From: Tubulanus polymorphus | Lineage: Eukaryota > Animalia > Nemertea | NCBI RefSeq assembly: GCF_964204645.1 | Contig: NC_134028.1 | Coordinates: 15,507,653 to 15,571,652 of the forward strand | Direction of reading: 5' to 3' | Length of the DNA stretch: 64,000 bases | Part shown: in pieces, positions 14,027 through 39,418 of the stretch | Layout: each line of letters opens with the position of its first letter | Numbering within the stretch: the stretch's first letter is position 1 | Notes under the pieces: generated by a model | What the model was told of the DNA's origin: nothing | Seen by the model: the letters and a program-made list of their open reading frames with translations, nothing else | The model's database searches: none | Program-made: the position numbers and the translations under genes

Positions 14027-14029
14027 TAA

Positions 14030-15409: not shown

Positions 15410-16266
15410 TTATTTTACTTAATTTTTGTTCTGATTCAATATCTGTTTCGATATTTTCTGATTTACTATTATCTTTACATACTATAGGTTTGATATTAGA
15501 AAATGTTATTAAACCAGTAGAAATTAATGTCATTATTCCACCTAATTGGAATGAAGCGTATCCAACCCATTTTTGTAGTTCTGTCATTACTAAATAGTCA
15601 TTTTTCAAATCACTATATAATTTATTTTCATCATCAATTGGAATTACTCGGTTACACAATTTAGAATAACATTTAACTATTCCATCACCAATAGAGTCAT
15701 TTATTCTAGCTAATCTAGCTTTGTTACCTGGTATTATATTGTAAGAATTGTATTGTACTGCCTGGCTGACTAGCATTTTTGGCAGTGGGTCACTGGTTTA
15801 ATCCAGCTGTCACAGTTTGTGCCTCCTTAATGCCTGCTAATATATATACCACTGCCGGGCTTGTATTAGTCAGTCAGACCTAGGCCGTTCTTGGAACTAT
15901 TAATGTGTCGCGCTATTTTATATCTGTTGTTAGCAGTTTCTTGTTAGCTTGGACGTTTACTCCACATCAGAGGATTTGTCTTTGACTCGCGTGTAACAGC
16001 TTCTTCGTATATTTTGAAATGCTTGATTACTTTATCTGGTTTCATATTATCTAATTCTTGAAAAGTTATAATTCTATTTAAAAACTCTTTAGATTTGCCG
16101 CCGGCAATTAGTAATTCTAGATGGTGCTTACATGTTGAATAGTATTTATAATCAATATTATCATTTTGAATACAATTGGAAACAACTGTATCATTATTGC
16201 CAGTAATACCTAAATCCACAATTGTCTTTTCAATATCAATCTATTCTTATTAGATTTCTTTGACAT
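15399..16266 (-). pseudogene. Homolog of the 201-aa Polinton ORF, interrupted by a solo LTR
   Basis: CKHHLELLIAGGK and LYSDLKNDYLVMTEL match 23391-23996. Removing the LTR restores IYEEARLAR. Confidence 0.88.
15722..15998. mobile_element. Solo LTR (277 bp), Gypsy-like
   Basis: TGTTAC...GTAACA termini. 4-bp TSD GCTT at 15718-15721 and 15999-16002. Confidence 0.8.
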
Positions 16267-19220: not shown

Positions 19221-19293
19221 TATTAGATATTTAAATCATTTAACTAAATTCAATAATTATTTGACTATTTAATTTATTTTCAATGTAGAATTG

Positions 19294-19938
19294 TTACTCT
19301 TTACACCAGTTTTTATGTTTAATTGTTTGGTAATGCTTTGATTTATGTGATTTTGAATATTTACCTCCGCAATAACAATGAATTTTTTCATTAGGATTAA
19401 ATCTTTTGAATTCATTTTCTAAATCACATTGAATTGCGATATGTTTAAAAGATTTACTATTTTCTAAATCACACTGAATTGCAATATCTTTAAAAGAATT
19501 ATTGTTTTCTAAATCACATTGAATTTCAATATTTGATGTATTTTCATTATAAATAATTTGTTTATTATCAAAATTACAATAATATAATCGTCGTTTTTCA
19601 ATTCTTAAGTCTATCCTATCATTAAAAGGAAATTTAAGAATATTTATTATGTTTTCATCTAAATTACCTTTATAATTTAAAACTGTATTAAATATTTTAG
19701 GATTTTTGGCGCCATTATCTAAAGTATCTATTAGTTCAGTAATTAAATATGTTTCATTTAATAATATTTGATTAATTACAGTAATATTATCAATTTTATA
19801 TTGTCTTCCATATACTAAATTTGTTGCTGAAATATAATTTCTAATGTTAAACTGTGAAAATGATTTATTGGTTTCATTGATTTCGATTTTGAAGTTGGGT
19901 TCTTCTTTCTTCATTTTTATAACAAAATTATTACTCAC
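19294..19938 (-). CDS. Third copy of the IQCD-repeat protein, with a 12-aa in-frame deletion
   Basis: 214 aa versus 226 aa, otherwise identical. Confidence 0.6.
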   Translation of the reverse strand: MSNNFVIKMKKEEPNFKIEINETNKSFSQFNIRNYISATNLVYGRQYKIDNITVINQILLNETYLITELIDTLDNGAKNPKIFNTVLNYKGNLDENIINILKFPFNDRIDLRIEKRRLYYCNFDNKQIIYNENTSNIEIQCDLENNNSFKDIAIQCDLENSKSFKHIAIQCDLENEFKRFNPNEKIHCYCGGKYSKSHKSKHYQTIKHKNWCKE

Positions 19939-20252
19939 ACTTTACTCACACTTTTAATATTGAAAATCTCAATTATTTTACTCACACTTTACTCACACTT
20001 TTAATATTGAAAATCTCAATTATTTTACTCACACTTTACTCACATTTTTAATATTAAACAATTTTATCATTTTACTCACACTTTACTCACACTTTTAATA
20101 TTGAAAATCTAAATTATTTTACTCACACTTTACTCACACTTTTAATATTGAACAATTTTATCATTTTATTAGCGCTTTTATATTAAAAAGTGTGTTTATT
20201 TTTGGAAAAAAGCAAAAAAAAAAAAAAAATTTTAACACACGCGCAGCTGTTG

Positions 20253-20465
20253 TTACGCGCACTCACTGTTTATGTGTGTCACAATTTTACTACGTAATAT
20301 TTCTAAAATTTCAATTGTATCTTTTATTTCTAGTGAATCAATATAATTTCTAACATTTTCCATGTAAGGTTTAATATATTTATCAATGTATTTTTTACAA
20401 TATGGGCAATAATATTGATTTTTATTAACATCACTTTTTTCTGTTTGGAACTCACTGTCTCCCAT
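20253..20465 (-). pseudogene. Third copy of the deleted pPolB N-terminus
   Basis: Translation identical to 1971-2183. Confidence 0.85.
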
Positions 20466-21810
20466 TTATTAGGGAAAAAAATTACTTGTGGTGATGAGTG
20501 GTGTCTAGTACTCTAGTACTCTGGTATGAAACCCACATCTTCCAATTACTCATATATAGGCTTTAATACTTCGAATTCCGTTAGTAACAAGAATATTGCT
20601 CAACGAATTTACTTGAAACTTACGTGAGATGTACGGAACACAGGTAGCTTGAGGTAAGTCGAAGGGATCTTTGATTGGGGACCCCGTTCACCAACCAGGG
20701 GGTGTTTTACATTTGAAAATTGTGACATCGCAAAGTTACTGTGTGAGAAAATTTTTTGTCATTTTTTGACTTTTCAGCTTCGGGTGAGCACGAAAGTTGT
20801 TCATAACAGCCCGGAGGTTAAAAAAGTCATTGGCACGCCCCATCTGCGATTAACCGTTTGGGCTCTACGGGCTCGAAAATGGGCCCCCAAATTTTTTAAG
20901 GTGGGAATTAAACCTGTAAGACGCTGGAATACGCATTTTCATCTATATCGACTAAGGGTATCAATGGATTTCTATAAAAATTGATACACATGTACCTGGT
21001 TACAAAACGAAACGAACCCCTCATATGATTAGTTCCCATTTTAACCACTAGGGAGCGTAAATTTGAAAAATCGATTTCAGCATCCATTTTTCGCATTTAA
21101 TGCGGTCTGTTTATTATGAAAATCACAAAACTTGGTATAAGAACAAAGACATGTATGTAATATGCCATCCTGCACGAATAGTTCATACAACTGCCACCAG
21201 GGGACTGTGAAAACAACGATTTTTGCTCCTAGGTCCTTAACCGTTGGCGATAGAATCGAGGTTGCAATGTGTGGTTAGTAGCCCTTTTCAAGAGACTTGT
21301 ATTAATGTATGGTTTAAGTAGGTAACTTATATGGTTCTCCAGGAGCGCCACCTACATTTTGCTGGAAATACATTTTCATTGATAGCTACTAAGCGGATAA
21401 AGGGATCTCTATGAAAATTGATATACATGTACCTGGATATAAGATGCATCGAATCCCGAACATAATTAGTTCCTAATCTAACCACTAGGGGGCGTTTATT
21501 TTGAAAACTCATTCTAGCATCAGTTTTTTCGATTGTAATTCAGTAGTATGCTAACCGGCAAATTACCGGCCACTTGGGCATGGTAAAACTACCGTATCTT
21601 CGTTATTCTCGGTGTCATATCCCCTAACCTTGGTACATTAGAACTTTTCGCGTAGTATCCCATGTGAATCAACATAGCCATGTTATCAGCTGACCCCTAT
21701 GTGGTGCTCCTCATCCAGCAAGGCAGAAACCCGTTATCGCTGCTTTGCAGCTATATTTATTAGGGTTTTCTGTTACATCACAGAAAACCCTATTGAGATT
21801 CGCGTGTTTC

Positions 21811-21842: not shown

Positions 21843-22519
21843 TTTTTTTTCCACACATTTTTTGTCAAAAGTACATAGGCTTTTTTACATTACCGCTGTT
21901 GCCGATACAATCCGTCTCATATGATTCAGCTCAGTTCGATCTACAAATACTCCGTGCGAATTTTGAAGAATCAACGTTACAAAAGCACTGTCGGGCCGTA
22001 CATCGAAAATTGAGCCCCATTCAAAGAGCCGACATGTTTTTCTAAGTCGTCTTTCCGAAATCTACCGCACGTTTCTGGTCACATCGATTATCAATTCAAG
22101 CATAAATTAACAAATTTATTACCCAAAGATTGCACATTCTGTCGCGGTTTTTAAAAACTAATTTTAACAATAACCCATTTTCCTCATCAAATTATAATAC
22201 CAATACACAGGAAATTTACTACTTCAGATTTTAAAAGCACTGTCGAGCCGTAAACATCGACAAATCGACGTGTGTCACTACATCGTCGTTCCGGGAATCA
22301 GCTTCGAGTTTCTCCTCATTCTGAGAATCAAATCAAGTACAAATTAATTTATTACTACCAGTGATTTGGCTGCGGGCGTAAAGCAGTTAATTTAGCAATA
22401 CCTATTTTTCTTTACAAAATTTACCGTGTTTTTACTAAGATAAATCATAAGTGTACCGGGGAGTCGTAAGCCTAAACTAAACACGCCGAAGAGATATAGC
22501 GGAGAAAAGCTGTTATGTC

Positions 22520-22604
22520 AGTAATTGGAAGATGTGGGTTTCAGATCAGAGGTCGAAGGTCGACCACGCATCACCACAAGTAATTTTTTTTCCTTATAAA
22601 TGGG
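22520..22604 (+). repeat. Left TIR (includes promoter motif and ATG of the first ORF)
   Basis: Reverse complement of 37305-37389. Confidence 0.95.
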
Positions 22605-22926
22605 AGATAGAAAAGCATTCTTAGCAACAATAAATAACAGAATTAAACCAACAAAAAAACAATTTGAAATAAAAAAGTTAGTTGATGTTACAAAAGAAAT
22701 TGAACATAAGATATTGAAATTAGAAAAGATAAAAACTAAATATGGAGAGAAAGTATCAGCTAATTTAAGCTACTGTAATGTTAGTACATCACGAGAATTT
22801 AAAGTGTTTTTACCCGATAAATGGGTTTCATTGAGTACAGAGGAATTGAAAGATTTAGTAGGATTTAAAATAATCTATCATGGAAAAAATGAAGACGGTC
22901 ATCATGATTTAGAAATTGTTGATTAA
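22600..22926 (+). CDS. 108-aa hypothetical protein, possibly OB-fold/ssDNA-binding
   Basis: TAAATG start inside the TIR. KTKYG..VFLP..IIYHG pattern. The fold call is inference only. Confidence 0.7.
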   Translation: MGDRKAFLATINNRIKPTKKQFEIKKLVDVTKEIEHKILKLEKIKTKYGEKVSANLSYCNVSTSREFKVFLPDKWVSLSTEELKDLVGFKIIYHGKNEDGHHDLEIVD

Positions 22927-23059
22927 ATTTAAAAAAATAAATTAATAAAAATAATGAATATCTAGAATCTGAAATGACTTATCTGGACAATTTAATTGCT
23001 CCGCGTAGATGGTGCCATAAACGGCACCCACACAGTGATAGACAAAAGTAGTGAGATAT

Positions 23060-23458
23060 TCAATTATTTTTTTGCTTTTTTTCTAAAATATTAATCCATT
23101 TTTTTATTATCAATTTTGGAATTTCAGAAGTACTTTCATTTTTGATAGCAGTTGGTTCAGAATTACTAATATCATGAATTCTATTTGATTTCTTATACCA
23201 ATTACACCCAATCAAAATGAATACAATTACAAATCCAACTGTAAAATATAAATATTTATCAAATATTCTATTATCAGAAGGAGTAGAAATAACAATATTT
23301 TCACCATTTTTATTAACATTTTTATTACTTATTTTTTCTTTTACAGCTTTTTTATATTCTTGTGATTTAATTCCTAATTGCCGAGACCATTCAATTTATT
23401 TCTGAGTTCTCGGTTTTTTCTTCACAGTTAATTCCTTCACTTCTTTCACCTCGCTCAT
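23060..23458 (-). pseudogene. Small basic TM protein with a premature stop at codon 21
   Basis: MSEVKE..KKKPRTQK*IEWSRQLG..YLYFTVGFVIVFILIG. The homolog at 15041-15409 has Q at the stop position. Confidence 0.75.
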
Positions 23459-23996
23459 TTATTATAGAAATATTTTTACTTTCAATATTTGAAAATGTTA
23501 TAACCCCAGTTGATAATAATGTCATAAATCCACCTAATTGAAACGATAAATATCCAATCCATTTATTTAATTCAGTCATTACTAAATAATCATTTTTTAA
23601 ATCGGAATATAATCTATTTTCATCTTCAATTGGAAGTATATAATTACATAATTTACTATAACCTTTTACTACATTTTCTGATATCAAGTCATTAATTATA
23701 GCTGTTCTCGCAGCTTCATAAATCTTAAATAATCTAATAATTTCATCTGATTTCATTGTATCTAATTCATTATAAGTTAAATTTTTACCGACAAATTTTT
23801 TACATTTTCCAGATGCTATTAATATTTCTAATTGATGTTTACAATAAAGATAATATTCATAATTATTATTTGTTGTAACATTATTTAAAGCACCATCATC
23901 TGGAATTAATTTGTTTTCTGTTATTCCTAAATCATCTAAAGTTTTTTCAATTGGAACATCACCATTTTTAGATTTTATTTTCTTTTCACCTACCAT
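23391..23996 (-). CDS. 201-aa conserved Polinton protein with C-terminal hydrophobic segment
   Basis: TAAATG start. Homolog in the older element at 15399-16266. Confidence 0.85.
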   Translation of the reverse strand: MVGEKKIKSKNGDVPIEKTLDDLGITENKLIPDDGALNNVTTNNNYEYYLYCKHQLEILIASGKCKKFVGKNLTYNELDTMKSDEIIRLFKIYEAARTAIINDLISENVVKGYSKLCNYILPIEDENRLYSDLKNDYLVMTELNKWIGYLSFQLGGFMTLLSTGVITFSNIESKNISIINERGERSEGINCEEKTENSEIN

Positions 23997-24019
23997 TTAT
24001 ATAACAAAAAAATTAGTTG

Positions 24020-24300
24020 TGATGTTGCAACTAGAATTCAACTAGAATGTAACTAGAATTCAACTAGATTAACAAGCTAGTTGAAATATTGTTATTTTTG
24101 TTTATTTCTTGTTAAATCTAGTTGATTTTTGTTCCAACTACCAATAACTAGAATTCAACTAGAATGTAACTAGAATTAAACTAGATTAACAAGCTAGTTA
24201 CAATATTGTTAAAATCTAGTTGATTTTTGTTACAACTACCAATAACTAGAATTCAACTAGAATGTAACTAAATATGTAATTGATTAACAAACTAATTGAA
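24020..24300. repeat. Intergenic array of AACTAGA-type short repeats
   Basis: CAACTAGAATTCAACTAGAATGTAACTAGA-like blocks at ~24028, 24146 and 24243. Confidence 0.8.
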
Positions 24301-24301
24301 T

Positions 24302-24910
24302 TTAAATAAATTCATATTTAAATGGGTGTTGTAATCTAAATAGTAATTTTGATCTTTTAATATTTTTCAACTTATCCATATATTCATTATGTAAATCATG
24401 TGGAATAATATCATTTTCCTCAAGTGCATTTTTCATTGATTTTCTATCTTTATTGTAGAATAAAACTAGAAATCTTATATTCTCCCTAAAGTCTTTAACA
24501 ATTGAATTATATTTTTGATTTAAAACCCATGTTGTTATCCCAAAATGTCTCCCAGAGAAAGCTAGATAACATAACTCACTTTCTCTAACTTTTGAATCAT
24601 GTAAATTTGCGCAATCATCTATGATAAATAATGTATTTGATCCTTTATAAATATCAATTGCTGTTTTAATACAATTATTTAAATTTTCTTTTACTGTTTT
24701 AGGATCTAATATAATAAATTTATTATTTCTAGTAATATTTCTATCATAAGTTTGACTAAATTCATACGTTGGGCAAAATAATACTATATTATCAAAATAG
24801 TTTTCATAAACAGTTTCTAATAAATTTAATATAAAATAAGTTTTTCCACAATTTGTTACGCCAGATATTAACATATTATGAGGCTCAAATATAAATAATT
24901 CTTTATTCAT
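24302..24910 (-). CDS. A32/FtsK-HerA family genome-packaging ATPase
   Basis: Walker A GVTNCGKT, Walker B IIDD, SGRHFGI, NQKY..IREN-like motif. Confidence 0.93.
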   Translation of the reverse strand: MNKELFIFEPHNMLISGVTNCGKTYFILNLLETVYENYFDNIVLFCPTYEFSQTYDRNITRNNKFIILDPKTVKENLNNCIKTAIDIYKGSNTLFIIDDCANLHDSKVRESELCYLAFSGRHFGITTWVLNQKYNSIVKDFRENIRFLVLFYNKDRKSMKNALEENDIIPHDLHNEYMDKLKNIKRSKLLFRLQHPFKYEFI

Positions 24911-26037
24911 TTATATATTTTTAATTTTACTTGATAATATCCATTCATTGAATTTATCTGGCCATCCAACCCATTTTACTAAAGAATATTTTTTCTTTTA
25001 ATAGTTTTTGTTTTTAATACTTTTTCAATTTTATATTCTTGTTCTAGATTTTCAGTAGTTAAACTTAATTCTTCTTCGTAAAAGTAGCCATCAACTTCTT
25101 CACCATCTAAATCTTCTAATTTATAGACATATGGGTTTGTTGTTATTACCTTTTTTATTTTGTATATTTCTCTAGTAAAATTTCGATCGTATCCTTTATC
25201 AAATATCTTTTTATACTTAGAAATTCTAACATTTTGACCAACTTTAAATTTAGGTTCACCAAAATCATCTACAAGAAATGCTCCATATAAATTATTCCAA
25301 ACAATTTCAGCATTTTCAGGTTTTCTAGCATCAATAGGTTTCATTCCAATAGAAGAATGATAAGAATTATTATATCCTTCTATCAATTTTGGTAAAACAT
25401 CAATCCATTTAAAAGTATTATTTGCTGTAAAATATTTCCACATTCTTGTTCTTAATGTTCTATTAAATCGTTCAACAACTGCTGCTTTTTTATCTGATTT
25501 TGTTGAAAAATATTTAATATTATGATTATCTAAGAGTTCATGAACAAGTGAATTATCAAACTCTTTTCCATCATCAAATTGTATTTTTTCTGGTTTTAGT
25601 TTATCATCCGAAAGAAATTTTCTTAAAACATTTGATGTTTGTACAGCATCTTTTCTATAAAGTGGGAAGCTCCATACATAACGACTAAGAATATCAATTA
25701 TATTCAATAACCACCAATAATCATCATTATCTTTCTTAACATTTTTCATATCAATTAAATCTCGTTGCCACTGTTGATCTACATAACTTACCATAGTTTT
25801 ACGAGTTTTATATTTTCTAACAATTTTTTTATGTGTTGTATATGTTGGTTGTTCTAACATAAATTCATTTATATCTTTATATTTAACTGAATTTTGTGGG
25901 ATTATCTTATCTAATTTATCTTGTTTTACTTTACTCCATATATTTTTAGTAGAAGAATAAGCAACCGAACTCTCAGGGTTGTAATATAAATTTCTTAAAT
26001 ATTGTTCTTTAGTATTAGGAGTTTTTTTACCACCCAT
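24911..26037 (-). CDS. Retroviral-like (rve) integrase with C-terminal chromodomain (frameshift at ~24990)
   Basis: DDE motifs QWQRDLID, IQFDDGKEF, KAAVVERFNRT. YKIEKVL continues in a shifted frame as YSLVKWVGWPDKFNEWI, whose TAA abuts the ATPase ATG. Confidence 0.93.
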
Positions 26038-26067
26038 TTATATATCCTTAATTTTAACTTTATATTT

Positions 26068-27315
26068 CTAATATTGAATACTATCTAATTGTGAATTTAC
26101 AATATTTAATTGTGCGTCAGATACAATATAAATATGCATTTTGAAATTTTTGTCCCCTCTTTTCTTCGCCATGAATAATTGTATTCCATCTTTAGTGTTC
26201 TGTAGTTTTTTCCCAGAACCATGTAATGAATTATCCTCTGTTGTTCTAAAATCTAACCATAATGCATATTTATTACCGGTATAATAATCAATTTGATTAA
26301 TATTACAATTTTCAAATGATTTTACTTTTTCATTCATAAAATGTTTTCTAATTTCTGGCCATTGATCAATCATTCTCATTCCTTGACAAAATATTTTATT
26401 TGCTATTCCTTCGATAGTTATTTCAACTTTTGTTATTTCAGGATTATAATAATTATCTACCTTTATTGCGCCATTAGAATATGTTGCAATAGTAAAAAAT
26501 ATTAATATACCTTTAATAGATCTTCTTGGGAAGTTAATATTCTCATTAATTATTTCATCATTTGCATCAATAGTTACAGTTTTAAATTTATCAATATAAT
26601 CATATAATAATGAAAATCCTTGATTGTATTGAGTTTGAATTGTGCTAGCAATATTTTCATTAGTAACTGTGTTATATTCTAAACATATATTCGATAATTT
26701 ATAACCCATATCTTTAACAACGCTAGATAATACAATTTCATTTACAGGAGCAAATGTTATCTCAAATATAATATCTTCTTGAATTGCATATTTATATAAA
26801 GGTGCATTGTTATTTATCAATTCAAAGTCTAATGGAATTTTATATTTGCTTCCATAAATCTTTTTAATCAAATTATCTGTGGCACGAGTTACTATTGCGT
26901 CATTAGCTCCTGATCTTAATTTATTATGGTTTTCCGATTGAATACCCTGAAATATCATATTATTTCTATTTTCTTTAGTTAACCATAAATCTTTATAATG
27001 CATAAATAAATTATAATCATCTAATGAGAAAACTGTTTCTGGACCAATCTTTATAGTTAATTTTTTAATCAAATATCTCCCAACATTATCAACAACATAA
27101 TTATTATCATGACCAATTACTTTTATATCAGCTGATAAATAAATACTATTTGGAACATAAAAAGTATTTTGTGTTAATCTAGGGATTCTAACATATAAAG
27201 TTTCATCGGGATTAATATTTGAAGGGTTATGAGTAATTATATGATGTGATCTTTCTGCTTTAATGGCATTAGATATTCTAGAAATCTTAGAAGGACTTAT
27301 ATAACTCCCACTCAT
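26068..27315 (-). CDS. Major capsid protein (double jelly-roll, inferred)
   Basis: 415 aa, intact and beta-strand rich. Position and size fit a Polinton MCP. Conserved in the older element. The fold needs profile or structure confirmation. Confidence 0.78.
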   Translation of the reverse strand: MSGSYISPSKISRISNAIKAERSHHIITHNPSNINPDETLYVRIPRLTQNTFYVPNSIYLSADIKVIGHDNNYVVDNVGRYLIKKLTIKIGPETVFSLDDYNLFMHYKDLWLTKENRNNMIFQGIQSENHNKLRSGANDAIVTRATDNLIKKIYGSKYKIPLDFELINNNAPLYKYAIQEDIIFEITFAPVNEIVLSSVVKDMGYKLSNICLEYNTVTNENIASTIQTQYNQGFSLLYDYIDKFKTVTIDANDEIINENINFPRRSIKGILIFFTIATYSNGAIKVDNYYNPEITKVEITIEGIANKIFCQGMRMIDQWPEIRKHFMNEKVKSFENCNINQIDYYTGNKYALWLDFRTTEDNSLHGSGKKLQNTKDGIQLFMAKKRGDKNFKMHIYIVSDAQLNIVNSQLDSIQY

Positions 27316-27335
27316 TTATTTAACAAAAAAATTAA

Positions 27336-28770
27336 TTATTTATTTTTGATCATGTTTACTAAACCAAAAATAATAGCACTTACAACTGTAATTAAAAATA
27401 AAATAATATGTTCAGCAGCAAAGTTAAGAATATTCCCAGCAGATTTCAATATAAAACCAACAATTGATGCAATAACTCCTGGCAATGCTGCAGCAGATTT
27501 TTTAAGTAGTTCCCATAAATATTTTGCTAATTTCTTTAAACCATCCTTAACTTTATCTTGTATAGAATTATTATCATTCGGGGGTTTATCCGGTTTATTG
27601 GGAGTAGGAGTAGATTTCAAAGCATTTGATATTGCTAAACCAATTGTTGTAAATAACATAGTTACAGCTGTTAGAATTGAAAGAATTGTTATTCCTTCTA
27701 ATTTAAATAATAACTTTATTCTATCTTTTAATGATATTTCAGAATTTAGTTTAATCAACAAATCTTTAAAAATAACTTTTAATCTATTAATATTATAATC
27801 ATATGATTTTAACAATAATTTAATTTCTTCTTTTTGTAATTCTATGTTATATTCTAAATCATCTTTTTTTATTTTCTAAACGTAATTCTTTTTGCCTATA
27901 TTCTATTTCATCAATTACTTGATGATCTAAATCAGACTTTAATTGTTCTATTTCTTTATTTTTATCAGTTAATTCTTTTTCTAAAGTTCTAATTTTAAAA
28001 TCTCTTATACTTTTATCATGCGCAATTTTATTAGATGCAAGTCTTATACTAATAATTTCTCTAATTGCTTTATCAGAAAATATATCTAAATCTTCTAATT
28101 CTTGATCTGTTGCATCAATTAATCCATTCGGTAAAAGTTTTTCAATTGGAACTTTATTTGATTTAAGTTTACTATTTTTGGAAGTTATATTCTGTTCAGA
28201 AGTTGTTTCTGTTTCTGATTTCTTTTTGATTATTTCAAATAATTCATTAATTCTTTGTTTAAATACATCTATATTATCATCTATTTCTTTTTGTGTAACA
28301 TCAGTTATTTCATTACTATTACTTATTATTTTAATTCTATCTGGTTTTAATTTTTCTAAAGTTGATTCTGATAATATTTTATTTTTATTATTTTTATAAG
28401 TGATATCAATATAATAATCACCTTTCAAACGATAATAACATTTACCATTATCTAAAAATTTTAATTGATCTGCTAAAAGTCCAACGTCTTCATCATTTAT
28501 GTTAAGTTTAGATTTTTCAATTAAATCTTCTAATTTAGGTATTTTGTTTAAATTATCTAAATCTTGTTTTACTAAATCTGGATCTAAATTTTCAGGATTT
28601 AATTGTGATTCAGCATTTTTAATATAATCAGGCATATTCAAATTATTACTATATTCTGGCTCATTACCATCATTAAAACTTGTTTCATCAAAATCAGGTG
28701 GTTGTTCATCAGTTATACCAGGTTCATCAAAAGGATCCATTCCAATATCTTCTCCACCTTCTACATCCAT
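27336..28770 (-). pseudogene. Acidic/coiled-coil protein with multi-helix hydrophobic C-terminus, split by a +1 frameshift in an A-run at ~27864-27870
   Basis: 303-aa and 159-aa ORFs join as ENKK-DDLEYNIELQKEEIKLLLKSYDY. The relic at 57253-57870 has the same linker. Confidence 0.8.
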
Positions 28771-28786
28771 TTATATAATAAAAAAA

Positions 28787-30233
28787 TTAAAATTTAAAAT
28801 ATAATATTCCTCCTATAACAATTCCTATACAAGTTATAGCTAATTTAGTATTTTCATGGGATTTATTGTCATTATCAGTTTTAATTATATCATGTTGAAT
28901 AACACCGTGTGGGTGCCGTATGGCACCATTATCAGTTTTAATATCACCGTGTGGGTGCCGTACGGCACCATTTTCTGTAGTATTGTAATCTTTTATTTTG
29001 GAATCATTATCCAATTTAATATTCTTAGTTTTAGTTTCTGTTGATTGAATATGTTTTTTATTTTTTTCACCTTCCATTAATTTTGTAGCAGTAATAATCT
29101 TTTTATTTATATCATTTAACCCAAATGAATTATTTATTGTTGCAGTTTTAATTAGATTATTATAACCAATTATGTTTCCCATCTTTAATACTAAATCATT
29201 AGAAATAATTAATAGATTAGGGCCTATACAATAATTTAATCTAATATGTGATTTATCTAAATAATTTTGATATCTTATAATGTTTTCTGGAATCGATCTA
29301 TTTTTATCATTATGTATGGAATCTTCAAATAATACTTTGAATTGTTTCTGTGTATCAAATGATGTATTCAAATTTCCAATTATCGGTGATCTTGTTTCAA
29401 CTTGCGCACCTAAAATACATATCAAATAAGTTCTAATAGATTGATTTATTCTTTGTATACCTGATTTAGTAAAACCTTCATTATTTTCTAAAATGAAATA
29501 AACCCAACCATTATTGTTTTCTTGTTTTAAATTATCATAAAATTTCGGTAATTTATTGAAATTTAATGTTTCTAAATCCTTTGTTTCTATTTTACCACAA
29601 CCTAATTTATTATTATAGATATTATAAAAGCTATTAGATGGTATGGGAAGTGCATAATATTCTGCAATCTTATTAGGGCAAGGAAGTGACCTTATTGTTC
29701 CAATTTTTGTTCTAAAATCAGAATTATTTATATCTATATTAAATTCATTACAAATTTTATAAAACTTTGATGAATTAATATTATTATCTAATTCTTTAAA
29801 ATATCTTGATCCTGGCAAAGCGCACTCTAATTCATTTAATATTATTCTGATTTGAGAGTATGTATGAAATCTAAATAAACTTTGAATTAATTTATATTTA
29901 GAATTATTCAAATGATCATTCCAACTAATTCCACAACCTGTTGTTGCACAATAAACAGCAAAATTTAATTGGTTCTTTCTGCCAATACTTCATATTAGAT
30001 TTTAATAACCATTGTTTTTCATCTTTCAATTTTTTAAAATTAATTTAATATACATGAAATATATTTTCCATCTTTGCATTAAAATTATTAGTTTCAGTAA
30101 CATAAATTTCTAAATTAGTTAATGAATCTAAAACTTCATTTCTATATGTAATATCTTTATTAAAATCTATTGCTGGAATATTATATTTAATTGATTTATT
30201 ATATTGAAAAGCTTTTGGAAAACTATCTACCAT
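28787..30233 (-). pseudogene. Conserved Polinton protein (QLNFAVYCATTGCG...FRFH) with C-terminal TM anchor; 5' part frameshifted
   Basis: 62-aa and 374-aa ORFs are joined through the disrupted region 29912-30044. The N-terminus is paralogous to 30250-30801. Confidence 0.75.
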
Positions 30234-30249
30234 TTATTTAATAAAAAAA

Positions 30250-30801
30250 TTAATAATTTATTAATTCTTTTAATAATTTATCTTGTTCTTCAACTGTTAT
30301 ATGACCATTTAAACTCATGATATAATCTAGTGTGTTCTTAGAAAAATTAATATTATTATTCAATTCTTTAAAATATTTTGAACCTGGTAAAGGACATTCT
30401 AATTCATCTAATATTAATTTTATTTGAAAATAAGTATGAAATCTAAAAAGTGATAACATCAATGGTAAACTTGGTTTGTTTAAATGATCATTCCAACTAA
30501 TTCCACAACCTGTTGTTGCACAATAAACAGCGAAATTTAATTGGTTCTGCCAATACTTCATATTAGATTTTAAAAACCATTGTTTTGCCTCATTTAAATT
30601 TTTGAAATTAATTGTATACACATGAAATATATTTTCCATCATTACATGAAAATTATTACTTTCAGTAACATAAATATATAAATCAATTAATGAATTTAAA
30701 ACTTCATTTCTATATGTAATATCTTTATTAAAATCAATTGCTGGAATATTATATCTAATTGATTTATTATATTGGAAAGCTTTTGGAAAACTATCTGCCA
30801 T
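30250..30801 (-). CDS. Truncated paralog of the downstream gene, fused to the tail of the upstream gene
   Basis: MADSFPKAFQYNKS vs MVDSFPKAFQYNKS. The tail NTLDYIMSLNGHITVEEQDKLLKEL duplicates 30828-30906. Confidence 0.7.
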   Translation of the reverse strand: MADSFPKAFQYNKSIRYNIPAIDFNKDITYRNEVLNSLIDLYIYVTESNNFHVMMENIFHVYTINFKNLNEAKQWFLKSNMKYWQNQLNFAVYCATTGCGISWNDHLNKPSLPLMLSLFRFHTYFQIKLILDELECPLPGSKYFKELNNNINFSKNTLDYIMSLNGHITVEEQDKLLKELINY

Positions 30802-30906
30802 TTATATAATTTGAAAATTAATAATTTATAATTCTTTTAATAATTTATCTTGTTCTTCAACTGTTATATGGCCATTTAAACTTATTATATAATCTAGTGT
30901 ATTCTT

Positions 30907-31248
30907 TCATTTATTAATTTCTTTTATATTAGTTTTAATTTTTTCTTTATTACTTTTTATATTTAATTTTGAACTTATACCGGTTAAAACACTTGAACTT
31001 AATCCTAACACACCAATTGATATAGCTAAAGGTGTTAATGGGCTGAATATTGCTAAAAATGTTATTACAGAACTAATTGTAACCGAACCACTAATAATCA
31101 AATAATATATAATTTTACTTTTTAAATATTTTTTTTTTATCTTTAAGTCACTTTCAAATTCTAATATTTGTTTTTCTAAATATGTTTTTAATTTAGTTTT
31201 ATTTATATCATGAGGAATAATATCAATACTATCAACTTTATCTTCCAT
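30907..31248 (-). CDS. Small two-TM protein (probably originally extended to ~30828)
   Basis: Two hydrophobic stretches. TAAATG start. The frame continues past TGA as KNTLDYIISLNGHITVEEQ. Confidence 0.7.
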   Translation of the reverse strand: MEDKVDSIDIIPHDINKTKLKTYLEKQILEFESDLKIKKKYLKSKIIYYLIISGSVTISSVITFLAIFSPLTPLAISIGVLGLSSSVLTGISSKLNIKSNKEKIKTNIKEINK

Positions 31249-31264
31249 TTATTTAGAAAAAAAA

Positions 31265-31685
31265 TTACTTATTATTAAACTTATAAGCAACAAATATAAC
31301 AATAACAGTTCCACCTAAAATCCAAATTATTTCATATTTCTTCTGTTCATTACTTGGGGTATAATAATCTGATAATTTAGGTTTGTATAGATGTAATTTT
31401 TCTTTATTGGTTACCGCGTTATATAAACTCATTGCATCATCAACTGATTAAAAATCTCTATGTGAAATCTTCTGATCATATAATTCTTTGTTAATATAAT
31501 CCATATAGTTTTGCCTCTTTTCTCTATATTTAAGCTTTATTGTATTTCTCTAACGCTAAGTTATGTCTTCTTTGTTCTCCTAATGAACTATTTTTATCAA
31601 TATGTTTAAATAAATATCCACCACCAGTAAATGCCAAAGCGTTAACAATTGCCGATCCTATAATAGTTATAATTGCAGAAGCCAT
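31265..31685 (-). pseudogene. Small membrane-associated Polinton protein (stops/frameshift), absent from the ORF track
   Basis: MASAIITIIGSAIVNALAFTGGGYLF..EQRRHNLALEK..PKLSDYYTPSNEQKKYEIIWILGG. TAAATG start. Confidence 0.7.
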
Positions 31686-31709
31686 TTATTTAGTAAAAAA
31701 ATTATGCAT

Positions 31710-31931
31710 TTATATGGGAGGAATATATTTTTGTTTTTCCAAATAATCAATAGTTAAATTAGATAAAGTAATTGCTAATGTTAACTTTAAAATATCATTT
31801 ATATCAAATCTATCAACATTAACACTTCCCATTTTGAATACTTTTTTTAATACCATTGAATAACCAACAGTTCCAACTGATAGTAATGCTCCATTATATA
31901 ATCCAGTTATTATCCACTTATTATCACTCAT
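31710..31931 (-). CDS. 73-aa hydrophobic protein
   Basis: T-tract/TAAATG start, tightly packed with neighbours. Confidence 0.75.
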   Translation of the reverse strand: MSDNKWIITGLYNGALLSVGTVGYSMVLKKVFKMGSVNVDRFDINDILKLTLAITLSNLTIDYLEKQKYIPPI

Positions 31932-31934
31932 TTA

Positions 31935-32288
31935 TTAATCAAAAAAATTACTATCTTCAAAATATTTAGTTATCTTAGTGATGATTAATTCAACATTTAT
32001 TTTATTACTAGTTTCATTTGTATATATTTCAATTATTATTTTTCTAATATCATCGATGATAAAATCTTCATTTAATTCATAAAATCTTAAAGATTCTCTA
32101 ATTAAATTAGTAATCTTTTCTACATTTAAAGTTTCTTTATCTATTGTTGTTTTATACTCAAATGTTGTTTCATTAGAAAATGCAATATTTTTAATATGTG
32201 TAATTACATCATTAATGTTAAATTTCATTTCTTTCTCACGTTTAAAATCAAATCCAAAACATATACTCGGTCCAACAGTTATATTCAT
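31935..32288 (-). CDS. 117-aa hypothetical protein
   Basis: T-tract/TAAATG start, tightly packed with neighbours. Confidence 0.72.
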   Translation of the reverse strand: MNITVGPSICFGFDFKREKEMKFNINDVITHIKNIAFSNETTFEYKTTIDKETLNVEKITNLIRESLRFYELNEDFIIDDIRKIIIEIYTNETSNKINVELIITKITKYFEDSNFFD

Positions 32289-32304
32289 TTATATAGTGAA
32301 AAAA

Positions 32305-33062
32305 TTACTCTTTACATCTTATAACTAATTCATAAATTACAGGAAAGTTATTCAAATCAATTAAATAACCATTATGATTTCTTATTTCTAATTTAAAATT
32401 ATTGAAATGTGGAATACAAGGTTTGAAATCACATTCAGTTAAATTATAATTTATTTGAGTTCCAAATTGTTTGACATTTTTTAATGGTAAAATATTTAAT
32501 AAACCAGAATTACAAATTGTATCTTTAGTTGCTTCAAATGTTTTTGTTGGGTCAATAAATTGCAATAAATATAAAAGTGTGTAAAAGGTATTAAGTTTGA
32601 TCTACCTTCTGCGTGTGCTGTAACAATATTTGGGTTAATTCCTAACAGTTTAGCTAAAGGTTTTCTTACTGTAAATTTAAATTGTTCGTTATTATCTAAC
32701 CTAATCTTTATTTTATTAGAACTATCACTTTTTAAAATTCTAATATTAAATTTAGAATCACTTCCTAATTTAGCTCGAGCTTTTCTATTAATTTCTTGTG
32801 CTAATGTATCTAAATTATATAATCCTGGTTTTAAATATATAAAATACCATTCATTCATTTTTTTGTAAAAGATTGAAAAAATTAAATGTTCTAGACTTTT
32901 ATCCGATATATTGTAAAATGAGTTACATAAACTTATATTTACTAATTTTAAATCAACACAATTCTTAAATTCTCTATCTAATTGTACTAGTAAATTATGT
33001 GATTTATAATTTGTAAGTTTTCTAGAATCAACAAATATTCTGTGTTCTTTTAATTCTACCAT
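32305..33062 (-). pseudogene. Minor capsid protein (penton, single jelly-roll), 1-bp frameshift at ~32556
   Basis: N-terminal IFVDSR..LVNISLCNSFYNI..LKPGLY and C-terminal LEIRNHNGYLIDLNN are typical of Polinton/virophage pentons. YIYCNL/IDP rejoins with one base added. Confidence 0.75.
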
Positions 33063-33130
33063 TATTTATAACATAAAAAAATTACCGCTCATCACTAAAA
33101 ATTAATTTTAATAAAATTTTTCCTAAATAA

Positions 33131-34444
33131 ATGGATGAGAAGATAGCATGCGAAATTTGTGGTGAACTTCTAAGAAAAAGTAACATGGCTCGACATATGA
33201 AAAAACATGATGAAAATTATAAACCCCCTAAAATAAACTGTCCAAAATGTAATAAATTATTCTCAAGAAATTATGTTAAAAAACATTCAGAGAAGTGTAG
33301 AATTAATGGCGCAACGGCTAATGTTGATAGTAATGAAAGTAATAGTAATTCTGCTGAAGTTGAACCTGAAGTTATTTGGAAAAGACCTTTCTTATTCTAT
33401 GATAAGGATAATATAAAAAATCATTTCTGTGAGCCTTGTCGAATAAAATATAGCCCTGAAAATATAGAAGAGTGGGAGAATCATCGATTTCGTAAAGTAC
33501 ATATGGATAAAATTTCTAATAAATTTGAAACTGAATTTAATGAAAGAAAAAATAATTTATTAGAAAAAATAAAATATGAGAAAACGTTACCAGATAATAA
33601 AGAAACAGTTGAAAAGTTAGAAAAACAATATAATGAATTAACAAGAAAAACATATTATTGTAAATATTGTAAATTGATTATTACAACAAGTAATTCAAAT
33701 CTACATAATAGAACAATAAAACATAAAGAAAACGTAAGAAAATACCAAGAGCTTAATGAAGATCTATTACCAATAAATTATAAACAAAAATGCCCACAAT
33801 GTATTTATGCGACCTTAAGACAAGAAGGTACTGTGTTATTTTGTAATGAATGTGGATGGCAAAAGAATTTATTGGGTGAAGAAAAAACTAGAGATTTTCT
33901 CATAGATCCAAAATTAAATTATCTAGATGAAATTTTTAAAATATTTTCTATGGAAGATCATACACCAGAATATATGCAATGGCTTGAAAAAATGAAAATA
34001 ATAGAAAATAAAAATGGTAAAATAACTAAAAAAGATATTATAAATACAATTATTCCGTCAACATTTAACACAAAACAAAAGAAAATGTATTTATATTTAT
34101 TATTTAACGATTATTATGAAAAACCTAAATTAACAGAAGAAGATATGGAAAATATAAAAAAAATATTCAAACAAATATTAATGTATCATTTGGAAAATAG
34201 AATAACAGATTCAATAAATTATGAATTCTTTTTAAATAAGATTGTAAATTATTTAAACCTAGATATTATAATTCCATTCGACGAATTAACAAACAAAAAG
34301 AAACAAACAGAGCGAGATGAAATGTGGAACAAGACAGAACTTTATTTAAATGAAAAAAATGGAATGGAAGAAGAACCTAAACAATTAAATGAAAATGAAG
34401 AAGCCAATAGTGATTTCGAGTTTGATGATATAGATCCATTTTGA
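33131..34444 (+). CDS. Multi-C2H2 zinc-finger protein with C-terminal VLTF3 (poxvirus A2)-like domain
   Basis: Four CxxC..H fingers, zinc ribbon CPQC..CNECG, then PKLTEE..IF..SINYEFFLNKI..RDEMWNK, recalling the VLTF3 C-terminal motif. Intact, 437 aa. Confidence 0.7.
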   Translation: MDEKIACEICGELLRKSNMARHMKKHDENYKPPKINCPKCNKLFSRNYVKKHSEKCRINGATANVDSNESNSNSAEVEPEVIWKRPFLFYDKDNIKNHFCEPCRIKYSPENIEEWENHRFRKVHMDKISNKFETEFNERKNNLLEKIKYEKTLPDNKETVEKLEKQYNELTRKTYYCKYCKLIITTSNSNLHNRTIKHKENVRKYQELNEDLLPINYKQKCPQCIYATLRQEGTVLFCNECGWQKNLLGEEKTRDFLIDPKLNYLDEIFKIFSMEDHTPEYMQWLEKMKIIENKNGKITKKDIINTIIPSTFNTKQKKMYLYLLFNDYYEKPKLTEEDMENIKKIFKQILMYHLENRITDSINYEFFLNKIVNYLNLDIIIPFDELTNKKKQTERDEMWNKTELYLNEKNGMEEEPKQLNENEEANSDFEFDDIDPF

Positions 34445-37309
34445 TAACCATAAGGTAATGTTTTTATACCATCATCTAAAATATGCCTTTTATCATCAAA
34501 TGGATTTAAACTAGTTTTTTCAACTTCATTAATGTACATCTCATGATCTTCTGATCTTAAACAATTCATTTTGTGTTTCATTACAATTGATTTATATAAA
34601 CACTTTATATAATCTTGAAATTCTATATGTTTATCAACCACATGTTTTGTTATTCCTTTTAACTTTTTAGCTTCATGATCTTTTGTTCTGTAACTATACA
34701 TTTTACTTCTTATCCCAACAAATTCAATCATTTCATCACCCCCTAATTCATCTTTAAACTTACCAGGAATCTTTTTATTATCATTGCTAAATAGTTCATG
34801 ATCTTTGGGATAATTGCTAAAATCAAAATGATGTTTTAATGTTTTTAAGTCTTTTGTTATGTCATTTGTCTTGATTTTTAGTATGTAGGCGTCAGTATTG
34901 TTGGCTATTAATGGAAATCCACAGTTAAATGTACCATCTTCAGTTGATAAATCATAAACATAATCTGTTGGGTTATATATTTCAAATAAATCTTTAACTT
35001 CTTCAGTTTACTCATTTTTTACATGGCTTAAATTAAAGCAATTTGGTTTAGATTTAATCAATCCAATATTCATATTAAAACCTAATGAATTGCATAATAT
35101 ATTTAATCCTGATATAGCAACTTTTCCTTTTTGAGCTAAAGATATTGTTTTGCGGTTTTTGAAACTTTTAGTACCATCGGCTGCGTAGAATCCAATGAAG
35201 AACCATTTTCTTAAATTATTTTTTGCATTTAATACATAATCTGGAACTATCTTTTCTTTAGTTGAAGTATTACTTTTCACTATTGTATGAATATAGAATT
35301 CGTTATTATATTTTATAGCAAAATCTTTAGGATTATTCACATGTATTCTATAACATTGCGATGATTTCATAACATCTATGATTTTGAATGTTTTATGTGA
35401 ATAAACTTCTTCACAGAATTTCTTAATTCTTTCTAATAATTTAAAGTCTTGATTGCATAAATACCAGCAATATTGAGTGCGATTAACATAATTATACACA
35501 CCTGCTGAACCATCACCCATGAAGAATCCTTTGATAAAATATTCTTTTTCTTCTAATGTTTCGGGTTCTATATTATAAATATTATCAATAATTTCATCAA
35601 ATGACATATGATTCATTCTTTTGAAAAATCTTTTATGTAATAATTCATCTCCAATTTTTATATCAGTTGGTTTTATTTCATCGCCATTTCGTTTAATTAA
35701 ACTATGATCTTCTGTAACATCTACAAATCCTAATTTAGTTCTAACTCTATAGATTTTCTTATTTGTTTTATGCCTAATAATATTCTTTAATTTTTTCCAT
35801 CCATTTCTTGTCCAAACATCCATTAAACAATTTATTTGTATTAATTCTTTTTCTCCATATGAAATATAACATTCATTTTGTTTTGGAATTATTTCTGAAA
35901 TTCTTATCAATATTTTATCATTACATTTTAATAATATTGGGGTGTCAGCTGTTACAGAGTCAAAATATAATATTTCAATATGCTTTTCTACATAGATAAA
36001 TTTTACGATGATGATCACTTTCTGTTCTAAAGAATAAATCAATTTGTTTTAACCACATATAATGTTCATTTTCATCTTTTTTATAATATAACAAATCTAT
36101 AGCATTTTCATCATCATAATATTCTGTTAAATATAAAGCTTCCAATGTATAATCTTTAATATTTTCACCTTTTGTCTTTGGTAATTGCATTAATTCGAAT
36201 ACATTTATTTTTAAATTATTAATTTTTTCTATTTTAGGAATCATTTTTATAGTTACTGGATATTGATCAATTTTATATCATGTTTCATATTTCCGATAAT
36301 CTGTTATTCTACAAACATTTTCCTGTGTTGGATGTAAGCAACTAATAATTGACCATAGAAAACATTTATTATCTTCATTTTGAATATTTATTACTGCTTT
36401 TGTTATAAATGGTAATTTAATATAAGATGATGCTTTAATATCCTTTTCTGTTGTAAAGTTTGAATCATTTTTAAACATTTTATTACTTTTTGATGTTTTA
36501 TTTCTTTTTGTATTATAAACATTTAAATCTAAATATATTATTTCATTCAATGTTAAGCCAGAACCCTCAAAATATCTTTCTTCAATATGACGTTTAAATT
36601 CATTTGATATTTTTTCTAACTTCTCTTTTATTTGTGTTTTTGAAATTATTTCTTCAGAGAGTGTTTGAATATTATAATTCATTTTTTCTTCTGACTTTAT
36701 AAAACTTACTTTCCCAGAGATACTAATTTTTGGATATTCAACATCTGTTATCAAATCTAGTATTTTTTCTATTATTTCACTAAATTTGCTATAATCTTCT
36801 ATTGTTGTTCCTTTAAAAAATCTAAATATAATAGCTGCAGGACCAATTTTACTATGTAATGTTTCTAAAATTTCAATTGTATCTTTTATTTCTAGTGAAT
36901 CAATATAATTTCTAACATTTTCCATGTAAGGTTTATTTGAAATGGATTTAGTTTTTGAAGTTGATTTTTTTACTTGTTGAGGTTTATTATCAAAATATTC
37001 TGATCCTAAAACATTTTTATTTAAATTTTTATAATGTTTTTGTGATTCGAGATGTCTATTATAATTCCTTTTTACTATAAATTCATTACAAACTGCACAT
37101 TTTATTTCATCCACATTCATATTTTCTAATCGTTCTTTTCTTTCATTGGAATTTTCTGGAGTTTCAAAATCTATTACATTTTTTATATGATTTGCAGATT
37201 TTTCATGTCGTGATTTTTGGGATTTATCGATGTATTTTTTACAATATTGACAATAATATTGATTTTTATTGACATTATTGTTTTCTGGTTGGTGTTCATT
37301 CTCCCCCAT
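34342..37309 (-). pseudogene. Protein-primed family B DNA polymerase (pPolB), internally deleted, intein-containing
   Basis: N-terminal zinc fingers and OTU-like INIQNEDNKCFLWS..HY block. In-frame TGA at 36278. Deletion of exonuclease and motifs A/B at ~35990. Motif C ILYFD^TDA, then FDFSNY..PGKFKDE..RSKMY..KLKGI..FDDKR..TLPYG. Confidence 0.93.
34897..35958 (-). mobile_element. Intein with LAGLIDADG homing endonuclease, 354 codons, one nonsense codon (35008-35010)
   Basis: Block A SVTADTPIL, block B VDVTEDHSL, LAGLIDADG blocks IKGFFMGDG and FIGFYAADG, block F YVYDLSTEDGTF, terminus IANN/T. Excision restores YFD-TDA. Confidence 0.93.
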
Positions 37310-37389
37310 TTATAAGGAAAAAAAATTACTTGTGGTGATGAGTGGTCGACCTTCGACCTCTGATCTGAAACCCACATCTTCCAATTACT
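37305..37389 (-). repeat. Right TIR (includes promoter motif and ATG of pPolB)
   Basis: Reverse complement of 22520-22604. Confidence 0.95.
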
Positions 37390-37764
37390 TATGTCGACGA
37401 GGTATCAAAATAAAAGAATATATTACTTTATTCGGCCGCGGGCCTCTATATCAATACCATCAATACTCTATATTTCCTACAGTACATACCGATCATTGTC
37501 AAATCCACAAGGTATTTACTAAATACAAGTATATAACACACTCCTATCCGTATGCTGGACTCACACTTGACATTCGTAGTAAGCGTTCGCTGTGGGGGAA
37601 AGGAGATCGTTCGCTGTGTCGCTTGAAGTGTTTATCCAGTTTTACGCGACCTTAAAGCTTTAGTATGGTGGCTGATAAGATAAAAAAAACACGAATTTGC
37701 AAATGAGGGCGACATAACGACAAAACGACAAAACTAAAATAACGCGAGAAAACAATGATTTTGA

Positions 37765-38598
37765 TTTTGTCGCCCGCGACAATTCAATATTTTGGTTTTA
37801 TCGCCCGAGACAATTCATTATTTTGGTTTTATCGCCCGCGACAATTCAATATTTTTGTTTTATCGCCCGCGACAATTCATTAGTTTGGTTTTATCGCCCG
37901 CGACAATTCATTAGTTTGGTTTTGTCGCCCGCGACAATTCAATATTTTGGTTTTATCACCCGCGACAATTCATTAGTTTGGTTTTATCGTCCGTGATAAT
38001 TCAATATTTTGGTTTTATCGCCCACGACAAGTCATTACTTTGGTTTTATCTCCAGCGACAATTCATTATTTTCGTTTTGTCGCCCGCAACAATTCTTGTT
38101 TTTGGTTTTGACGCCTGCGACAATTCATTATTTTGGTTTTATACTTTGTTTTTGTCGCCCGAGACAATTTTTTTTTTTTGGTTTTGTCACCCGCGACAAT
38201 TCAATATTTTGGTTTTGTTGCCCGCGACGATTCAATATTTTGGTTTTATCGCCCGAGATAATTCATTATTTTGGTTTTATCGCCCGCGACAATTCATTAT
38301 TTTGGTTTTATCGCCCGCGACAATTCAATATTTTGGTTCTATCGCCCGCGACAATTCATTATTTTGGTTTTATCGCCCCCGACAATTCAATATTTTTGTT
38401 TTATCGCCCGCGACAATTCATTAGTTTGGTTTTATCGCCCGCGACAATTCATTAGTTTGGTTTTGTCGCCCGCGACAATTCAATATTTTGGTTTTATCAC
38501 CCGCGACAATTCATTAGTTTGGTTTTATCGCCCGCGACAATTCATTAGTTTGGTTTTGTCGCCCGCGACGATTCATTAGTTTGGTTTTGTCGCCCGCG
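37765..38598. repeat. 31-bp satellite (TTTTGGTTTTRTCGCCCGCGACAATTCATTA)n
   Basis: Read directly. Internal dyad TTGTCGC-CC-GCGACAA. Confidence 0.95.
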
Positions 38599-39418
38599 AA
38601 ATATCTTTCTTCAATATGACGTTTAAATTCATTTAATATTTTTTCTAACTTCTCTTTTATTTGTGTTTTTGAAATTATTTCTTCAGAGAGTGTTTGAATA
38701 TTATAATTCATTTTTTCTTCTGACTTTATAAAACTTACTTTCCCAGAGATACTAATTTTTGGATATTCAACATCTGTTATCAAATCTAGTATTTTTTCTA
38801 TTATTTCACTAAATTTGCTATAATCTTCTATTGTTGTTCCTTTAAAAAATCTAAATATAATAGCTGCAGGACCAATTTTACTATGTAATGTTTCTAAAAT
38901 TTCAATTGTATCTTTTATTTCTAGTGAATCAATATAATTTCTAACATTTTCGATGTAAGGTTTATTTGAAATGGATTTAGTTTTTGAAGTAGATTTTTTT
39001 ACTTGTTGAGGTTTATTATCAAAATATTCTGATCCTAAAACATTTTTATTTAAATTTTTATAATGTTTTTGTGATTCGAGATGTCTATTATAATTCCTTT
39101 TTACTATAAATTCATTACAAACTGCACATTTTATTTCATCCACATTCATATTTTCTAATCGTTCTTTTCTTTCATTGGAATTTTCTGGAGTTTCAAAATC
39201 TATTACATTTTTTATATGATTTGCAGATTTTTCATGTCGTGATTTTTGGGATTTATCGATGTATTTTTTACAATATTGACAATAATATTGATTTTTATTG
39301 ACATTATTGTTTTCTGGTTGGTGTTCATTCTCCCCCATTTATAAGGAAAAAAAATTACTTGTGGTGATGAGTGGTCGACCTTCGACCTCTGATCTGAAAC
39401 CCACATCTTCCAATAACT
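38599..39418 (-). mobile_element. Duplicated right end of the Polinton (truncated pPolB N-terminus plus TIR with one terminal substitution)
   Basis: Copy of 36570-37389 at offset 2029, followed by the same TATGTC and flank. Confidence 0.92.

Follow-up and report, generated by a model that had tools for sequence, protein, structure and literature searches.

We analyzed a 64-kb window from the nemertean Tubulanus polymorphus (contig NC_134028.1, positions 15,507,653 to 15,571,652) in which a Polinton provirus occupies positions 22520–37389, integrated and bounded by inverted repeats. The two terminal inverted repeats (TIRs; 22520–22607 on the plus strand and 37302–37389 on the minus strand) are 88 nt each with 2 mismatches and stop just inside the first codons of their genes: the left TIR holds a T-run/TAAATG motif and the start of a 108-aa gene, and the right TIR holds the same motif and the start of the gene for the protein-primed B-family DNA polymerase (pPolB). 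The 6-bp sequence TATGTC abuts both ends of the provirus (22514–22519 and 37390–37395) as a target-site duplication (TSD), and two paralogous copies of the host repeat without the insertion, at 48679 and 54406, have TATGTC only once, which shows that the element sits in a host repeat with a 6-bp duplication. GC content is 19–25% within the element (~76% AT) as opposed to ~38–40% across much of the flank. The original prediction for this locus, made without database searches, had described clean TIRs and a TSD around a defective virophage-like polintovirus, and the ends are indeed as it described them.

Reading from the left, the 108-aa gene (22600–22926, plus strand; 73% to its orthologue in the related locus L001, function not assigned) is followed on the minus strand by a broken small membrane-protein gene with a TAAATG start (23060–23458; L001 orthologue of 130 aa), a conserved 201-aa gene that distant relatives also have (23391–23996), a predicted A32-like packaging ATPase in an open frame (24302–24910; Pfam Pox_A32, E 3e-13), an rve integrase with a frame break near its C-terminal tail (24914–26037; Pfam rve, E 1.6e-8) and a double jelly-roll (DJR) major capsid protein (MCP) with an open frame of 415 aa (26068–27315). 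The 305-nt spacer between the ATPase and 201-aa genes (23997–24301) contains imperfect direct and inverted repeats with AACTAG-type units. Further along the minus strand lie a broken gene whose product has a coiled coil and, at its C-terminus, hydrophobic helices (27336–28770; L001 orthologue of 485 aa), a conserved broken gene whose 5’ part is tandemly duplicated (28787–30801; L001 orthologue of 442 aa), a block of small hydrophobic genes (30829–31931) made up of a SLATT-like gene with two transmembrane (TM) segments and a stop, a broken 139-aa-type gene and a 73-aa gene, a 117-aa gene to which no function is assigned (31935–32288), and a probable minor capsid (penton) gene with a frame break (32305–33065; orthologue of L001:565–1326). 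The plus-strand gene at 33131–34444 is open and encodes a 437-aa zinc-finger protein with a C-terminal zinc ribbon and a VLTF3 (poxvirus A2-like) domain. The pPolB gene (34444–37309, minus strand), delimited by tblastn with the PF03175 protein P0001, carries a LAGLIDADG intein at a YFD|TD site (34897–35958, minus strand) with an in-frame stop at 35008–35010.

TIRs with a 6-bp TSD, pPolB, rve integrase, A32 ATPase and DJR MCP, the features by which a Polinton is recognized, are thus all present, together with the probable penton and roughly ten further genes that are small and hydrophobic or function-unassigned. The structural model of the MCP (predicted local distance difference test (pLDDT) 90) finds DJR capsids in a fold search down to E 2e-20, and the MCP of a bivalve-named record is 38% identical to it; with the repeat-rich flanks, this points to an invertebrate host. 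The penton candidate has viral clusters with DUF5901 as its Atlas neighbors but no PDB match, and we assign its identity tentatively, partly from motifs. Sequence profiles of the MCP and penton found no match in PDB, and searches of IMG/VR found no relatives of the MCP, the ATPase or P0001. An MCP cluster 56% identical to that of the window (P0164) is filed under several Bartonella assemblies on contigs of 0.5–1.6 kb and is likely host DNA carried over.

This copy is broken, as had been predicted. Its pPolB is homologous to P0001 at both ends, and ~815 codons of the middle are deleted near 35995–36025, with one in-frame stop upstream of the gap and a second inside the intein; comparison with L001 and P0001 shows that the integrase tail, the minor capsid gene and four function-unassigned genes are likewise interrupted by stops or frame breaks. 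The MCP, ATPase and VLTF3-like genes are still open. Parts of the element occur in 6 sequencing-run rows from 3 studies, none of them RNA and hence uninformative on expression, and the window has no Rfam match.

The most uniform feature of the element is the sequence over its start codons. At 14 of 15 gene starts TAA directly precedes the ATG behind a T-run, the fifteenth reads TAAAT-AATG, and a sixteenth, broken gene also has TAA-ATG, so that the motif stands on 15 of 16 genes, both TIR-embedded starts included. Across the whole element, by comparison, TAA stands before only 46 of 581 ATGs, which gives 14 of 15 a binomial P of 5e-15. We then asked how the motif is distributed among relatives, using the best 80 of 234 metagenome MCP relatives and 3 distant loci from a genome collection, with starts anchored by homology. 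In the 16 close loci, 33 of 39 homologous starts read TAA-ATG, compared with 5 of 163 in the 67 remaining ones. A quick MCP tree (58 rows, open reading frames (ORFs) below 330 aa left out, relatives without named reference MCPs) joined the window and 14 close loci in one branch (SH-aLRT 98), in which 14 of 15 rows bear the TAAATG label. The TAAATG start thus appears to be the mark of a whole capsid clade and not of one copy, and this is new here.

Could such a motif be a mere by-product of an AT-rich translation-start context, or of overlaps between a TAA stop and the next ATG, in an otherwise ordinary Polinton? The high AT content of the element and the several stops that abut the upstream motif of the next gene would suit this explanation. 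It is largely refuted, however, by the close loci with a GC fraction of at least 0.30 (0.30–0.44), which keep TAA-ATG at 14 of 16 starts, and by 20 AT-rich outgroup loci, in which AAA-ATG prevails and TAA-ATG is found at only 4 of 37. The motif moreover precedes genes that have no upstream neighbor, as at the two starts within the TIRs and in the divergent pair of VLTF3 and penton genes. We consider a compositional origin very improbable.

All four TAA-ATG starts of the AT-rich outgroups fall in L056–L058, a separate long-branch lineage with the motif at 4 of 4 homologous starts; the motif may have arisen twice or go back to a deeper root. In a sister clade, TATA lies near many ATGs, often behind ATTTTC, as opposed to a background of 6–7%. 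Two of its loci have a short VLTF3-like gene (L054:6522–7049 and L062:5070–5576; Pfam E 7e-4 and 4e-5), and L054 also carries a Bcl-2 gene. The late initiator of African swine fever virus (ASFV) is TATA (PMC7458399), and this sister clade is possibly tuned to a different helper.

Vaccinia virus late promoters have an upstream T-run at about the same spacing as that seen here. The late start element of poxviruses is TAAAT overlapping the ATG, from which slippage makes a poly(A) leader (PMC4542343, PMC3061580). The element therefore bears, as a motif, what looks like a helper-type late promoter on most of its genes, with no early/late split among them. The motif is not a general trait of contigs with a related intein, which use TAA-ATG at 51 of 396 starts. 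The uniform late-promoter motifs that had been noted in the window thus withstood comparison with other relatives, with background ATGs and with intein contigs.

The second line of evidence is the 437-aa zinc-finger protein. Searched whole, it has no Pfam VLTF3 match, and a word-based search returned no homologue; a 202-aa fragment likewise has no Pox_VLTF3 match. Its last 132 aa, in contrast, match Pox_VLTF3 (PF04947) at E 2.9e-5 with a score of 24.3 bits, slightly short of the cut-off, which is 25. An exhaustive search of 1.84 billion proteins gave 4 matches, 3 of them without a name, including P0272, which corresponds to a gene at the end of L001. The sole match that Pfam names VLTF3, P0275, is of pox type with an A2L ribbon and is 63% identical to a gene on a 232-kb viral contig. 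In a fold search of the structural model (pLDDT 82), a poxvirus VLTF3 ranked first (E 3e-6) and cowpox and two entomopoxvirus VLTF3s stood within the top four, followed by giant-virus VLTF3s in fifth and sixth place (E 1e-4). Domain size and zinc-ribbon layout fit poxvirus A2 as well. The VLTF3-like domain, which had first been proposed from the sequence, appears to be genuine, and poxviral proteins are its best named matches both in sequence and in predicted fold.

A self-encoded factor also invites a different explanation, in which the element is an autonomous nuclear Polinton whose own zinc-ribbon, cyclin-fold (TFIIB-like) VLTF3 steers host RNA polymerase II (Pol II) to a private T-run/TAAATG box, the likeness to poxviruses being a legacy of the joint capture of factor and motif. 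An element living purely off the late machinery of a helper could, strictly, do without its own factor, and a VIA structure search of the VLTF3 model returned cyclin-box/TFIIB folds, weakly (Z 6.3 or less). The presence of several family copies and derivatives in one window is compatible with host-driven spread, and the sister clade couples another short VLTF3-like gene with TATA near the ATG. Yet the VLTF3-like gene itself lies behind the same motif, leaving nothing to start the cycle, and an initiator over the ATG gives host scanning no leader unless slippage adds one. The element encodes neither the RNA polymerase of poxviruses nor the partner factors with which VLTF3 acts, and our scan of accessory ORFs in TAAATG-clade loci turned up no poxvirus RNA polymerase subunit. 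We regard this autonomous mode of life as unlikely, although it is the most serious of the alternatives that we weighed.

The third feature is the pPolB intein of 354 codons, inserted at YFD|S...N|TD. It has Hint ends (S...N, with T at +1) and a LAGLIDADG core, and Pfam finds Intein_splicing and LAGLIDADG_3 in it. The insertion site is shared by 103 of 120 listed relatives in which both junctions could be located. Among 704 intein matches the best are polinton-type polymerase inteins (46–60%), followed by RNA-primed PolB inteins, mostly at 35–42%. Nucleocytovirus PolB inteins at YGD|TDS share the site, the S...N ends and the LAGLIDADG core at this latter level of identity; here, by contrast, the host gene is a protein-primed polymerase and the polinton copies form their own clade. 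In a quick intein tree of 64 rows, which combined 58 inteins from the junction-defined set of 103 with five partial sequences and the N-terminal segment from the window, the nine rows that we labelled polinton-type formed one branch with support 100 and a long stem. The intein is also patchy. The polymerase of the TAAATG-clade locus L008 has none, and in the P0002 cluster (P0241–P0254), a distant polinton pPolB family at 90% identity, 7 of 15 listed members have it, 4 do not and 4 have no junction; residues before the site vary with intein state, as homing co-conversion predicts. Being patchy and forming a single polinton clade on a long branch, the intein points to an old capture with homing among polinton polymerases, and it does not name a present helper. 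Endonuclease insertions in polinton pPolBs have been tied to intein invasions (PMC11071308), and PMC10748475 describes HNH and VSR inserts, the string ‘intein’ being absent from the passages available. Searches of titles and abstracts found no published pPolB Hint intein (subscription papers, Repbase and supplements were outside their scope). The intein is therefore of the nucleocytoplasmic large DNA virus type, as first proposed, in that its viral relatives are giant-virus PolB inteins; we rejected it as evidence of helper dependence, because it is patchy and comes from a different donor.

These relatives nevertheless raise the alternative of a non-pox helper, that is, a giant, asfar-like, ego-like or other nucleocytovirus with a TAAAT-like late initiator. 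The closest viral relatives of the intein occur in contigs of which, in IMG/VR, 17 of 37 are labelled GVMAG, a label that we take to denote giant-virus genomes. Some intein contigs reach as many as 5 of 12 TAA-ATG starts (L087), and giant-virus VLTF3s follow directly behind the poxviral ones in the fold search. Against such a helper stand the age of the capture just described, the ASFV late initiator cited above, which is TATA and not TAAATG, and the domain size and zinc-ribbon layout, which match poxvirus A2. A helper of this kind seems to us quite improbable.

Two further features had been listed beside these signals, namely a block of small TM proteins and the lack of an adenain protease, and as observations both stand. 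Several small ORFs have hydrophobic segments, and one of their L001 orthologues is weakly SLATT-like. No adenain match to Pfam was found in the element, whose largest unassigned stretch, the 305-nt spacer, leaves no coding space; a protease was likewise absent from ORFs of at least 125 aa (capsid ORFs excepted) in six long relatives without the motif, in a search without a positive control. PRO has been reported in 74% of polintons (PMC4028283), so its absence is compatible with Polinton membership. Small hydrophobic genes, too, are common to relatives without TAAATG. Since the wider group shares them, neither the absent protease nor the TM genes tell anything about a helper, and we rejected both as evidence for one. 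Two TAAATG-clade elements carry a deoxynucleoside kinase (dNK; L001:10343–10981 and L007:2898–3380), and the two kinases are mutually distant.

Our preferred reading, to which we assign a probability of roughly 60%, is a virophage-like endogenous polintovirus that would be transcribed by a pox-type late RNA polymerase. The signature is best explained by dependence on a large DNA virus of the cytoplasm, and of the two kinds of helper originally proposed, pox-like or giant virus, the evidence favors the former. The dNK of two relatives, the motif without an early/late split and the existence of poxvirus-associated polinton-like viruses (PMC11296320) also speak for this reading. The three signals that had been taken to converge independently do not do so, since the intein is patchy and points to giant viruses, while the motif and VLTF3 point to poxviruses. 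What carries the case for a helper is mainly the promoter motif, which stood up to its controls, together with the pox-type VLTF3.

Several observations weigh against this reading. Because the loci compared are related, they do not count as independent cases, and Fisher values computed from them overstate independence; the ‘close’ set, moreover, was picked with the data already in view. A true pox-like contig has TAA-ATG at 7 of 18 starts, which makes the motif uniformity of the element unlike that of a poxvirus itself, and the exact extended promoter pattern has no match in IMG/VR. The nearest viral relatives of the intein are giant-virus and not poxviral, and the giant-virus-type contigs to which it points use the motif at only the low rate given above. 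The VLTF3 match is weak, falling under the Pfam cut-off and reaching E 5.5e-5 to P0275; since the alignment from which the model was folded included P0275, the fold ranking may lean towards poxviruses. The sister clade has a short VLTF3-like gene yet does not use TAAATG. Finally, neither a helper virus nor a transcript start nor a particle was observed.

If the polintovirus is indeed read by a pox-type polymerase, its cycle may run as follows. Intact copies would stay quiet in the chromosomes, since the motif hardly leaves space for a leader on host Pol II transcripts. Upon helper infection, the late machinery would initiate within TAAAT and add a poly(A) leader by slippage, as in poxviruses. 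The VLTF3-like protein would join this machinery or compete in it, and its additional zinc fingers might direct it preferentially to element DNA. In the helper factory, replication by pPolB would start at the TIRs, with help from the nucleoside kinase in some members; ATPase, MCP and penton would package it, and the integrase would return the element to a chromosome. A broader proposition, which we advance tentatively and at somewhat less than even odds, is that a whole lineage of germline polintoviruses in invertebrates are virophages of poxviruses, dormant until a pox-type RNA polymerase arrives, with a captured A2/VLTF3 with which to hijack or throttle it. If true, animals would possess an inherited antiviral defense similar to that of mavirus, and these elements would hint, from the genome, at pox-like viruses still unfound in their hosts.

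The window holds further remnants of this family. A non-autonomous derivative at 1886–8188 and 17659–20550 has a family-like TIR (~82%) with its TAAATG, together with 92 nt from the 5’ region of pPolB, followed by an unrelated 227-aa ORF (no Pfam or PHROGs match) and then satellite; its first copy lies inside a large inverted duplication (1491–4866/5187–8583). Sister-element fragments at 10621–11257, 12410–16240 and 56602–57901, several with their TAAATG starts kept, include MCP halves at 87–92% nucleotide identity and ATPase, integrase and 201-aa-type genes at 70–86%. The stretch at 38593–39418, within a 31-bp satellite, is a 99.3% duplicate of the right end of the element with its TIR, TSD and flank.

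The expression and spread of animal Polintons have long posed a question, and according to a 2026 framework preprint their virions have not been observed. Promoters of a clade that match one helper class make the question testable, and since sequence suffices to score the start motif, other Polinton families could be grouped with it by their likely helper. Should the pox-type reading be true, it predicts pox-like viruses in hosts without a record of them and extends the endogenous-virophage model from protists to animals.

Among known systems, the element most resembles animal Mavericks/Polintons (Polintoviricetes), including the adintoviruses of Starrett et al. (PMC8502044), in its TIRs, 6-bp TSD, pPolB, rve, A32, DJR MCP, probable penton and the ~15–17 kb size class. 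It differs from them in the adenain that was not found, the clade-wide TAAATG starts, the pox-type VLTF3, the pPolB intein and, in two relatives, dNK; its MCP has no close adintovirus match in BFVD, the best named one being 11% identical. The element does not look like a virophage proper (mavirus/Sputnik class, recognized by its type of MCP and a maturation protease): virophage MCPs rank only 37th and 47th at 10–11% identity, and no protease was found here. VLTF3 inside polintons is already published and is not new: homologues are reported in coral polintoviruses (Stephens et al. 2024, PMC11131425) and in Zephyr-group PLVs (polinton-like viruses; 10.64898/2026.06.19.733378), the word ‘promoter’ being absent from the main texts of both and the pox type of VLTF3 not stated in the available passages; the available text of PMC5499653 does not contain the string ‘VLTF’. 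For a Polinton clade with poxvirus late starts, our title and abstract searches, with the same scope as for the intein, found no precedent.

The closest precedent for the mode of transcription proposed here is mavirus and the type 4 endogenous mavirus-like elements (EMALEs) of Cafeteria (PMC10945749), which likewise integrate by rve, bear pPolB and carry a helper-type late motif. Sharing of that motif predicts which giant virus reactivates a type 4 EMALE, and virophages that use the late machinery of a helper likewise have no early/late motif split (PMC10945749). There, however, the host is a protist, the helper is CroV, the capsid is of the virophage class and reactivation was shown by experiment. 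The closest precedent for the helper is the set of entomopoxvirus-associated PLVs AHEV_PLV1/2, CBEV_PLV1 and Ca_PLV1 (Barth et al. 2024, PMC11296320), proposed hyperparasites of poxviruses that are likewise small DJR viruses with TIRs, one of them integrated in an insect chromosome; the available main text does not mention promoter, TAAAT, VLTF or intein. Unlike the element described here, they have their own adenovirus-type protease and either a tyrosine recombinase or no detected integrase, and they are linked to their helper by co-purification and not by a promoter signature. Poxvirus-associated PLVs are already known (PMC11296320), and what the Tubulanus element adds is a start-motif signature that is well supported in sequence.

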